Notes under the pieces: generated by a model
Seen by the model: only the letters and a program-made list of their open reading frames with translations
Database searches by the model: none
Told to the model about the DNA's origin: nothing
In this document: piece after piece, positions 2,298 through 5,588 of the stretch
Numbering within the stretch: the stretch's first letter is position 1
Layout: the number at the start of each line of letters is the position of its first letter
Source of the DNA: Vulcanimicrobiota bacterium
GTDB lineage: Bacteria; Vulcanimicrobiota; Vulcanimicrobiia; Vulcanimicrobiales; Vulcanimicrobiaceae
Direction of reading: 5' to 3'
Assembly (NCBI GenBank): GCA_003135555.1
Contig: PLCF01000064.1
Location: 1-25,879, forward strand
DNA: 25,879 bases
Made by a program: the position numbers and the translations under genes

Positions 2298-3851
2298 TCA
2301 TCCCGAGTTCGCGGGGAGCCCGGCGAAATAGGCCTCGACGTCTTCGGCGAAGCTGTATCGCGCCGGCGGGCGCGGCATCCCGTGCGCGACGAGGGCGCGT
2401 GCACAACCCAGCCAGTCGCCGTCCGATTCCGTCTGCGCACCCGAAACGAAGCTCAACGTTCCCATGACGTTGTCCTCATAGCCGTGTTCTTCGGTCCAGC
2501 GTGCGCCGTGTTCGAGCAAGAACTCCGTGAGCTGCGCGTCGCCGCGAAATACCGCGAGGTTGAGCGCGCTCGCGCTCCAGTCGCCGCCGCGCACGTCGAT
2601 CGGCCATCCCAACGCCACCATCAGCTCGACCGCGTCGCGCCGCCCGCTCTCGGCCAGCACCGGCAGTAGCCGCAACTGCTCCTCCGAAAGCTCGCTCAGC
2701 AACGCCGGCTGCGTTGCGAGTAGCGCGGCGGCCGCGTCGCGATCGGCGCGCGCGCAGGCGCCGAGAAAGCGATCGTGCGCCGCCGGCGGCTCGTCGCTCC
2801 CGAACCGCGCCACGATGTCGGTGCGGCCGAACCGAAATGCCAGCAGCTCTGCGGAGACGCCGCTCGACGCCGGCGCGGTCGGATCGGCTCCGGCCGCCAG
2901 CAACGCGTCGATATGCGCGAGCGAACGCCCGCGCCGGATCGCGTGATGCAGCGGACGGCCCAGGCTGTCACTGAACTCGTTGGGGTCGCCGCCGTGCGCG
3001 AGGAGCAGTTCCAGGCCGGGGAGATTCTCGCGGTCGAGCACGTGGAAGAGCGCATTCCCGCCGCTCACGATTGCGCCGGCTTCGAGCAGCAGTCGGGTGC
3101 ATTCCAGATCCGGACCGTCGAGCGAGTGGTAGAGCGACTCGCCGTCGTTGGGATCGGCCCCGGCCTCGAGCAGCATCCGCGTCAGCGCAGGATCGTGCGC
3201 GTGCCCAGCCGCTCCGTACAATGCCCCGAACGCGGCACCTGGGAACGCCGCCGGAGCCCAGGTCGCGTCGCGATCCGCGCCGGCGTCGAGCAGGATGCGC
3301 GCGCAACGCCGCAACCCGTCGGCGAATCGCGGGAGCCGCACGAGCGTCGAGAACGTTACCGCCAGCAGCGGCGTCATCTCCAGCAAGCTGCCGGCGCGGT
3401 TCACCCAGCCCGGGTCGCGTTCGAGCGTCTGCCGTATGACCGCCTCGTCGCCGGCCGCACACGCGACGAAGGGGTCGGCGCGCCGTTCAGCACCCAGCTC
3501 GTCGTAGACACGTTCGGCCGCCGCCGGACGCGGCGGGTCGAACCCGGCGCCGTAGACCAGGTCGAACCAGCGGCTCAGCGCGCCGTCTTCGGCGCGAACG
3601 CGTTGCCATTCGACGTAGGTCCGCAGCTCGGACCAGGATGGAAACCCGTATTCACGTCCGACGCACGACTGCATGTCGTGCAGGCGCAGCGCGAGATCCG
3701 CCAATTCGGCGTCGTCGCGACCGCGAGCAACCGGCAGCGCCTCGCGCAAGCGCTCGAAGGCGCCGCCGTCGCCCGCGCGATAGTCGCGCAGCAGATCCTT
3801 CGCCTGCGCCTTGAGATGGGCGACGCTGGGCCGCGCCGGCAACCGTTTCAT
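2298..3851 (-). CDS. Ankyrin-repeat protein with an N-terminal helical domain (LPARPSVAHLKAQAKDLL...GREYGFPSW)
   Basis: Repeated ankyrin consensus units (TPLLAV..LLDAGAD, LLEAGADPN, LLAHGGDPN, RPLHHA..LLAAGADP, SALNLA..LLEHGA). ATG at 3851 has a GAGGT Shine-Dalgarno at 3860-3856, preferred over the ORF-track start at 3899. Confidence 0.88.
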   Translation of the reverse strand: MKRLPARPSVAHLKAQAKDLLRDYRAGDGGAFERLREALPVARGRDDAELADLALRLHDMQSCVGREYGFPSWSELRTYVEWQRVRAEDGALSRWFDLVYGAGFDPPRPAAAERVYDELGAERRADPFVACAAGDEAVIRQTLERDPGWVNRAGSLLEMTPLLAVTFSTLVRLPRFADGLRRCARILLDAGADRDATWAPAAFPGAAFGALYGAAGHAHDPALTRMLLEAGADPNDGESLYHSLDGPDLECTRLLLEAGAIVSGGNALFHVLDRENLPGLELLLAHGGDPNEFSDSLGRPLHHAIRRGRSLAHIDALLAAGADPTAPASSGVSAELLAFRFGRTDIVARFGSDEPPAAHDRFLGACARADRDAAAALLATQPALLSELSEEQLRLLPVLAESGRRDAVELMVALGWPIDVRGGDWSASALNLAVFRGDAQLTEFLLEHGARWTEEHGYEDNVMGTLSFVSGAQTESDGDWLGCARALVAHGMPRPPARYSFAEDVEAYFAGLPANSG

Positions 3852-4003
3852 GGGAACCTCACATGCAGAAGAGCCGCGACCCGCAATCTCGGCATGCACG
3901 AAGGTTCGTGACGTGCTCGGCTACCGGCAAGTGGGTTCAACCCTTCCCGCGGGCCCGGAGGCGGCTTGCATCCGCCGACGGCGCAGTTGGCCTCCGGTCC
4001 GCG
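3852..4003 (-). ncRNA. Candidate structured cis-regulatory RNA leader of the ankyrin gene
   Basis: Complementary segments seen directly: CGCGG-A-CCGGAGGC (4003-3990) with GCCTCCGG-GC-CCGCG (3962-3948); hairpin GGGTTGAACCC (3943-3933); GAACCTTCGTGCA (3907-3895) with TGCATGTGAGGTTC (3867-3854), which covers the SD; competing hairpin CACGAACCTTCGTG (3910-3897). Confidence 0.55.
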
Positions 4004-4032
4004 CGTTCCCTCGTCGGCGCCGGCGAGCGTCA

Positions 4033-4059
4033 AGGAGAAGGCATCGTCCGCCTTCTCCT
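4033..4059. terminator. Perfect 10-bp hairpin just downstream of mmsA; possible terminator or processing stem
   Basis: AGGAGAAGGC-atcgtcc-GCCTTCTCCT. T-tracts are weak on both strands (CTTTG on +, TG on -). Confidence 0.5.
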
Positions 4060-4079
4060 CTTTGAATTCCGCCGCGTGG

Positions 4080-5588
<1,509 letters not shown>

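Follow-up and report, generated by a model that had tools for sequence, protein, structure and literature searches.

Why does the gene of an ankyrin-repeat protein begin with a small helical domain that is not made of ankyrin repeats, and why is its start codon preceded by an RNA leader that is conserved far beyond its own phylum? The gene in question lies on contig PLCF01000064.1 of the Vulcanimicrobiota assembly GCA_003135555.1, and the whole stretch analysed here, 25,879 nucleotides (nt), is called the window hereafter. An earlier reading of this DNA, made from the letters and a list of open reading frames (ORFs) without database searches (the sequence-only reading), had proposed that the first residues of the protein form a portable nucleic-acid-binding module, which recognizes the leader of its own message and makes, together with it, a two-part system of RNA and protein. 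As described below, the leader and the module (residues 1-85) are near-obligate neighbours across phyla and across fusion partners. What this adjacency means for the function of the two halves is discussed after the evidence for it.

Co-occurrence of the leader and the module

The 130 nt that lead up to the start codon show conservation from one phylum to another, and a covariance model of this leader, R1, was built from 16 leaders; we call it the main type, to distinguish it from a second class that appears later. R1 scores the leader of the window at 89.7 bits (E 1.4e-21; 3846-3984, minus strand). In the window, and likewise in 38 of 41 loci taken from species genomes, its match ends at the start codon of the module gene, the three misses being a partial match of 18.8 bits (L023), a locus without available upstream DNA (L036) and a locus whose protein match is itself dubious (L041). 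An alignment of Lon-type fusions served to collect another 80 loci, from metagenomes and independent of the first set, and R1 matches all 80 of them, two being cut by contig ends; LON_substr_bdg is present in 38 of 41 loci that were matched over the Lon part. In the R1-positive loci, the module is followed by Ank, LON_substr_bdg, PhyH or WD40. Because R1 matches recur across these architectures, the RNA follows the module whatever the fusion partner is, which answers a point raised by the sequence-only reading.

Is the RNA also restricted to the module? Both sets of loci were selected through the module and are therefore uninformative on exclusivity, while the whole-genome scans with R1 were made without reference to protein. 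The own genome of the window (3.57 Mb, 84% complete) contains a single RNA, which adjoins the genome's only module gene. Among 151 genomes of the same phylum there are seven matches, all directly 5' of a module ORF, one of which (in G138) encodes a short module variant missed by the protein profile. Five further genomes gave eight matches, each with a module ORF downstream, and in one of them three RNA copies sit each on its own paralogue. In 151 Acidobacteriota genomes 15 matches were obtained, 13 of them new; a module ORF follows in 12/12 of the new ones that can be evaluated, the remaining one being cut by a contig end. In 151 Pseudomonadota genomes both of the two R1 matches have a module ORF downstream. 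Throughout the approximately 450 genomes searched, no main-type RNA was found before a gene without the module. The sequence-only reading depended on RNA and domain occurring together across genomes, and together they are, in nearly all loci of the two sets and in all evaluable matches of the genome scans.

Folding of the main-type leader

The main-type leader is a pseudoknotted RNA that sequesters the Shine-Dalgarno sequence by covarying pairing, and its elements are collected in Table 1. Since the 3' strand of P2 sits in the loop of P4, P2 is a loop-to-strand pseudoknot. Over 100 aligned leaders, the structure of 32 pairs has 86.2% of its cells paired against 77.4% in shuffled alignments, none of 500 shuffles being as high; cells with changes on both sides number 350 against 128 in the shuffles, and pairing drops to 38-48% when partners are slid against each other. 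The two Shine-Dalgarno helices are paired in 76.5% and 94.2% of cells, with up to six pair types. It is to be noted that the covariation in PK1, P4 and the Shine-Dalgarno helix is unbiased, because these elements are absent from the structure given to the R1 model. P1 is present in all groups, but with a varying register, so that only 65% of its cells are paired in the alignment; it is poorly aligned because loop lengths differ between groups. RNAalifold on a MAFFT alignment recovered P2 only. Comparison with Rfam 15 gave no match at E<=10 overlapping 3852-3984, and none at E<=0.1 on 12 loci with main or compact leaders.

Table 1. Positions in the window of the leader, its structural elements, the gene and the flanking features
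Feature	Positions	Strand	Remarks
Structured 5' leader RNA, main type	3852-3984	minus	ends at start codon
P1 hairpin	3960-3976	minus	GGCGG (3976-3972) with CCGCC (3964-3960); read from sequence
PK1 5' strand, loop of P1 (GCAAG)	3969-3965	minus	read from sequence
P2 5' strand (GGCCCGC)	3955-3949	minus	P2 99.8% paired; GC/AU/GU and UA/CG exchanges
Conserved purine junction (GGGAA)	3948-3944	minus	directly after P2 5' strand
P3 hairpin (GGGU-UGA-ACCC)	3933-3943	minus	94.2% paired; 4/4 pairs covary
PK1 3' strand (CUUGC)	3927-3931	minus	85% of cells paired; 4/4 pairs changed on both sides
Anti-Shine-Dalgarno strand (CCUUCGUGCA)	3895-3904	minus	pairs with 3867-3857; stacks under P4
P4 hairpin	3873-3893	minus	GCCG (3893-3890) with CGGC (3876-3873); 80.6% paired; 4/5 pairs covary
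P2 3' strand (GCGGGUC), in P4 loop	3884-3878	minus	
Shine-Dalgarno strand (UGCAU-GU-GAGG)	3857-3867	minus	5 nt before AUG at 3851; covariation
Ankyrin-protein gene	2298-3851	minus	ORF of 517 residues, ATG at 3851
N-terminal helical module, residues 1-85	3597-3851	minus	AlphaFold2 model, phmmer relatives, hhalign to PF20066
Linker, ankyrin-repeat array and stop codon	2298-3596	minus	Pfam Ank models
G+C-rich hairpin, strong, perfect 10 bp	4033-4059	called on plus	no clear U-tract on minus
Aldehyde dehydrogenase gene, upstream	4080-5588	minus	hairpin lies 20 nt after its stop

The module, its spread and its family

Pfam places the window protein among the ankyrin-repeat proteins, with Ank_2 (53.8 bits), Ank_4 (53.0), Ank (40.0), Ank_3 (38.1) and Ank_5 (28.5) all above their cut-offs, while the repeats span only residues ~248-452 and no family is assigned to the first ~85 residues. 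Thus, the sequence-only reading was right in separating the first ~80 residues from the ankyrin repeats, and also in its range, 3600-3851, the exact one being 3597-3851 for residues 1-85. Its description of a helical domain that starts with a basic helix is likewise borne out: AlphaFold2, given an alignment of 52 sequences, returned a confident all-helical model (mean pLDDT, the per-residue confidence score, 86.5; pTM, the predicted template-modelling score, 0.71) with five helices at residues 10-25, 29-38, 47-53, 57-67 and 73-99, the first of which carries K14, K18, R22 and R25. The consensus of the 52 aligned relatives reads MxxLPxRPNLxHLKKQAKDLLR...LRLHDAQSCIAREYGFxSWxxL, and the near-invariant positions are P5, H12, L13, Q16, A17, K18, L20, A31, R34, P40, L57, D59, Q61, A65, R66, G69 and W73, among which D59 is invariant.

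The module is far from a chance stretch of sequence; it is widespread and nearly always N-terminal. Queried with the 85 residues, phmmer found 2655 proteins at E<=1e-3 among 1.84 billion representatives of clusters at 50% identity, and 307 of these reach E<=1e-10. In 140 of the 150 matches listed, the alignment sets in within the first 13 residues, and the later starts would fit ORFs that were called too long, through the leader, as is seen in some loci. Module and leader together were found across at least five phyla; no copy was found in E. coli. When the Pfam partners of 148 representatives were tallied, LON_substr_bdg followed the module in 25, ankyrin repeats in 21, BFN_dom in three and FliG_C in one; in another one the module occurs three times, along with ClpX zinc fingers and Clp_N, five have sub-threshold Pfam matches only, and 92, many of them short fragments, have no Pfam match. 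The loci add PhyH (L009), WD40 (L137) and the glyoxalase family PF00903 (L054, L152, L153). Portability of the module, as claimed by the sequence-only reading, is therefore well documented by this range of partners, from Ank and the Lon N-domain through BFN, ClpX zinc finger/Clp_N and FliG_C to PhyH, WD40 and PF00903. In the metagenomic protein P0178 (747 residues), three modules are interleaved with three ClpX zinc fingers and followed by Clp_N repeats, and in P0261 the module is combined with BFN_dom and Clp_N.

To which family does the module belong? A likeness to Glyoxalase_8 had been put forward in the sequence-only reading. PF20066, the Pfam model of that name (cut-off 23.7 bits), matches neither residues 1-168 nor the whole window protein at E<=10, and relatives of the module reach 21.6, 21.4, 17.4 and 15.1 bits at model positions ~26-62. 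In a comparison of profiles, with 13 full-length PF20066 proteins gathered from 301 Pseudomonadota genomes, hhalign aligned the module with the N-terminal part of PF20066 over 76 columns (probability 92.2%, E 5.9e-7), which supports the suggested likeness. The alignment pairs helix 1 and helices 4-5 of the module with the first ~55 positions of PF20066, to which they are homologous, and leaves helices 2-3 as a 24-residue insertion of the window-type module. The difference lies behind this part, where PF20066 has a C-terminal part (positions ~65-143) and the window protein has ankyrin repeats. Moreover, the first ~60 positions of PF20066 are found alone in Pseudomonadota ORFs of 179-486 residues with other C-termini. 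Since the N-terminal part occurs alone, the PF20066 model merges a portable N-terminal module of ~55 residues with a separate C-terminal part.

A second class of leader

Genes of PF20066 in Pseudomonadota are preceded by a distinct leader, which is also conserved and structured (L176-L209; for example L208:1355-1500 and L209:1370-1480). In this Glyoxalase_8-type leader, a helix closes the structure, a hairpin and a GGUGAA junction follow, and a strand further upstream pairs with the loop of the 3' hairpin in a loop-strand pseudoknot. In an alignment of 12 sequences 96.7% of its cells are paired, compared with 81.3% in shuffles, of which 0 of 500 are as high, and 11 of the 13 pairs are changed on both sides; ten loci of this type gave no Rfam 15 match at E<=1. 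Of 16 ORFs in which PF20066 is represented by its N-terminal part alone, 13 have the same leader before them, as judged by eye. These 13 have VOC-like, Lon-like and other C-termini, and the three ORFs without this leader are the weakest protein matches. The leader was also seen on a plasmid of Klebsiella variicola and on plasmid pMRAD01 of Methylobacterium radiotolerans JCM 2831, in both cases upstream of a gene annotated 'glyoxalase superfamily protein'.

A covariance model of the Glyoxalase_8-type leader, R2, detects none of 12 main-type or compact leaders; the leaders thus make two classes, and a shared ancestry of the classes has no support from this comparison. As for its distribution, 151 Pseudomonadota genomes gave 13 matches. 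A module ORF follows immediately on 12 of them, many of which were training sequences, and the thirteenth lies 5' of a MatE transporter gene (PF01554, E 2.4e-29). In one alphaproteobacterial order R2 has 58 matches in 54 of 151 genomes. Among the 51 examined, 47 precede module ORFs and four precede MatE genes, a further seven being outside this count. What is supported of the proposed two-part system is the portability of the module and the co-occurrence of the two halves; the 4/51 Glyoxalase_8-type leaders before MatE speak against a strict partnership in cis. One genome (G664) has both classes: its main-type leader precedes a module-Ank gene (L271), and its Glyoxalase_8-type leader a Lon-like gene with the short module (L200).

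Possible links between the leader and the module

It is easy to postulate a loop in which the protein controls its own message. The module and the pseudoknotted leader would be inherited as one cassette, of which the module is the protein half: it would bind the leader of the mRNA that encodes it, once this leader is folded, and might also act in trans; its binding would set how often the message is translated, presumably in the direction of repression, by stabilizing the closed fold of the leader, while the variable C-terminal part, ankyrin repeats in this case, would act as an effector or a sensor. The near-obligate adjacency, the presence of one leader for each paralogue and the matched diversification of the two halves (the long module goes with the main leader, the short one with the Glyoxalase_8-type leader, and the glyoxalase fusions with the compact leader) favour a functional pair, and direct binding is the simplest way to read such a pair. 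We put this cassette with direct binding forward tentatively, as the leading possibility and as something short of probable. Precedents are the leaders by which genes of ribosomal proteins, and genes like them, are autoregulated, in which a protein binds the structured 5' untranslated region (UTR) of its own mRNA. As in those systems, a structured leader lies directly 5' of one protein family in one-to-one adjacency, occludes the Shine-Dalgarno sequence, and has differing structures for the same protein family in different lineages; the adjacency expected of such a leader is found here with the exception of four MatE cases in the second leader class. The difference is that the constant part is here an N-terminal module of ~55-85 residues on many unrelated C-termini, whose binding is putative.

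Several observations weigh against such a cassette. First, the protein does not look like a known RNA-binding domain. Foldseek, a comparison which the sequence-only reading had looked to for a fold, assigned the AlphaFold2 model of the module to no PDB entry at E<=1e-3; VIA-align against 48,161 chains had a best Z of 4.5 and no match above background; and sequence and profile searches of PDB gave nothing significant for the module or for residues 1-168. The module is only mildly basic (median net charge +2, isoelectric point 8.9, over 212 domains), and its invariant residue is an aspartate. OST-HTH/LOTUS (PF12872, predicted RNA-binding) was considered and rejected: its weak matches fall on a few residues about the conserved G-F-x-S-W segment that look like a helix-turn-helix, but it gives the window protein 11.7 bits (E 0.25) and two relatives 23.3 and 20.5 bits, all below the cut-off of 23.8, and the model of the module is all-helical. 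Second, the pairing of RNA and protein is not without gaps. There are module genes without a full R1 match, and in G113 the first helix is degenerate and the leader motif mostly lost; G099 and L023 have compact leaders, which R1 scores at 15.3 and 18.8 bits; and the PF00903 glyoxalase fusions have, by eye in five loci, only the compact variant. In addition, the four MatE genes behind Glyoxalase_8-type leaders (L222:1501-1650, L258, L267 and L268) have no module and are mutually 70-92% identical, so that the RNA can work without a module encoded downstream. Third, the 5' UTR is contiguous with the first codons, so that co-inheritance alone could keep the pair together, and it is hard to see why effectors so numerous and so unrelated should all be put under a homeostatic loop. 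Searching the ESM Atlas with the module returned only unnamed clusters, with scores of 0.84-0.88.

What if the leader senses something other than the protein? Like a riboswitch, it may respond to a small molecule, which could be a toxic compound, or to some other signal that is not a protein, and may open or close the Shine-Dalgarno helix by itself; the module would then stay off the RNA and contribute to this response differently, for instance as a second binder of the ligand or as a domain that regulates or targets the effector fused to it. Both leader classes are conserved structured RNAs with covariation, and the covarying Shine-Dalgarno helix would be their expression platform, as expected of riboswitches. 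The complex pseudoknotted fold of the main type, with its conserved purine junction and a platform that sequesters the Shine-Dalgarno sequence, speaks for this reading. Two leader classes before homologous genes are known for several riboswitch ligands too, and the absence of an RNA-binding signature in the module would be no surprise. Although the downstream genes nearly all carry the module, the four MatE efflux genes without it and the partner domains that deal with small molecules, PF00903 (glyoxalase/bleomycin resistance), the C-terminal part of PF20066 and PhyH, hint at a small molecule, and together with the two leader classes they fit a riboswitch equally well as the cassette. The regulon argues otherwise: those of riboswitches normally cover several unrelated families, whereas here all evaluable main-type leaders and 47 of 51 of the Glyoxalase_8 type share one domain, and conserved neighbours for biosynthesis or transport were not found. 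A module gene with its own leader is also encoded in each of the four MatE genomes, which speaks for a link with the module, but weakly, because these genomes may be close kin. The MatE leaders themselves fit a ligand-sensing riboswitch as well as they fit regulation in trans. The nearest parallel is the yjdF motif, an orphan riboswitch candidate tied almost exclusively to one gene (PMC4793209). The likeness is that a structured leader is nearly restricted to one protein of unknown function, with rare other genes, MatE in the present case, hinting at the ligand, and the difference is that the leaders here are linked to a domain and not to a whole gene family, form two classes and have no Rfam match. 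On balance, we regard ligand sensing without binding by the module as a serious candidate, though somewhat doubtful.

Returning to a module that binds RNA, one may go a step further than the cassette. The module might be an output domain of a new kind that binds RNA, with the leader as its operator, and the two together would make a portable one-component regulator of mRNAs that regulates itself and, in some Alphaproteobacteria, also controls MatE in trans. With its many fused sensors or effectors (Ank, Lon-N, VOC, PhyH, WD40), it would be the counterpart at the RNA level of TetR-type repressors. We consider this extended form unlikely.

Least of all do we expect the adjacency to be mere physical linkage, in which the leader would be a constitutive or temperature-sensitive throttle of translation, the module a docking, oligomerization or targeting domain, for instance for AAA+ proteases, and the pair would travel together since new fusions swap only the 3' part of the gene: the protease-adaptor contexts of the Lon N-domain, Clp_N and the ClpX zinc finger, the protein-binding repeats of Ank and WD40, and the helical, near-neutral, N-terminal character of the module would suit it, but both halves are under joint selection across at least five phyla and have diversified in matched types, RNA thermometers seldom keep invariant junction nucleotides and two pseudoknots, and the main-type RNA never stands before another gene in the genomes searched, all of which makes it improbable.

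Whichever of these is true, the module, with thousands of members, and both leader classes appear to be uncatalogued. Full-text searches of the literature found no description of the leader motif or the module; in Weinberg et al., 2017 (PMC5737381), the words ankyrin, glyoxalase and autoregulat have no occurrence in the searched text, its supplements, which could list such a motif, lying outside the search. A leader that tracks a domain rather than a gene is unusual for cis-regulatory RNAs. If the module binds the leader, there would be a new RNA-binding domain and a portable cassette for autoregulation; if a ligand does, there would be new riboswitch classes with a regulon defined by a protein module. 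Since named culturable carriers exist, including the Methylobacterium strain with pMRAD01, the work can move beyond metagenomes.

Compact leaders and flanking DNA

Compact variants of the leader, recognized by eye, occupy ~100 nt before the start codons in L152, L153, L054, L172 and L173, and occur also in L057 and L023. In this form the long-range P2 seems to be replaced by a local hairpin before a GAAAGG junction, a possible circular permutation.

The flanking genes are not conserved, the commonest neighbour being found in at most 3 of 107 loci. In the window, the G+C-rich hairpin between the aldehyde dehydrogenase gene and the leader is a likely terminator, and the leader would therefore belong to a separate transcript. 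A sigma-70 promoter scan gave no site in 3700-4300. TAAGAT-like -10 and TTGAC -35 boxes, of which none is recognizable in the window, can be seen by eye a few nt 5' of P1 in several other loci (L005-L007, L032, L004, L008 and L018), and their position points to the first hairpin as the likely start of transcription.

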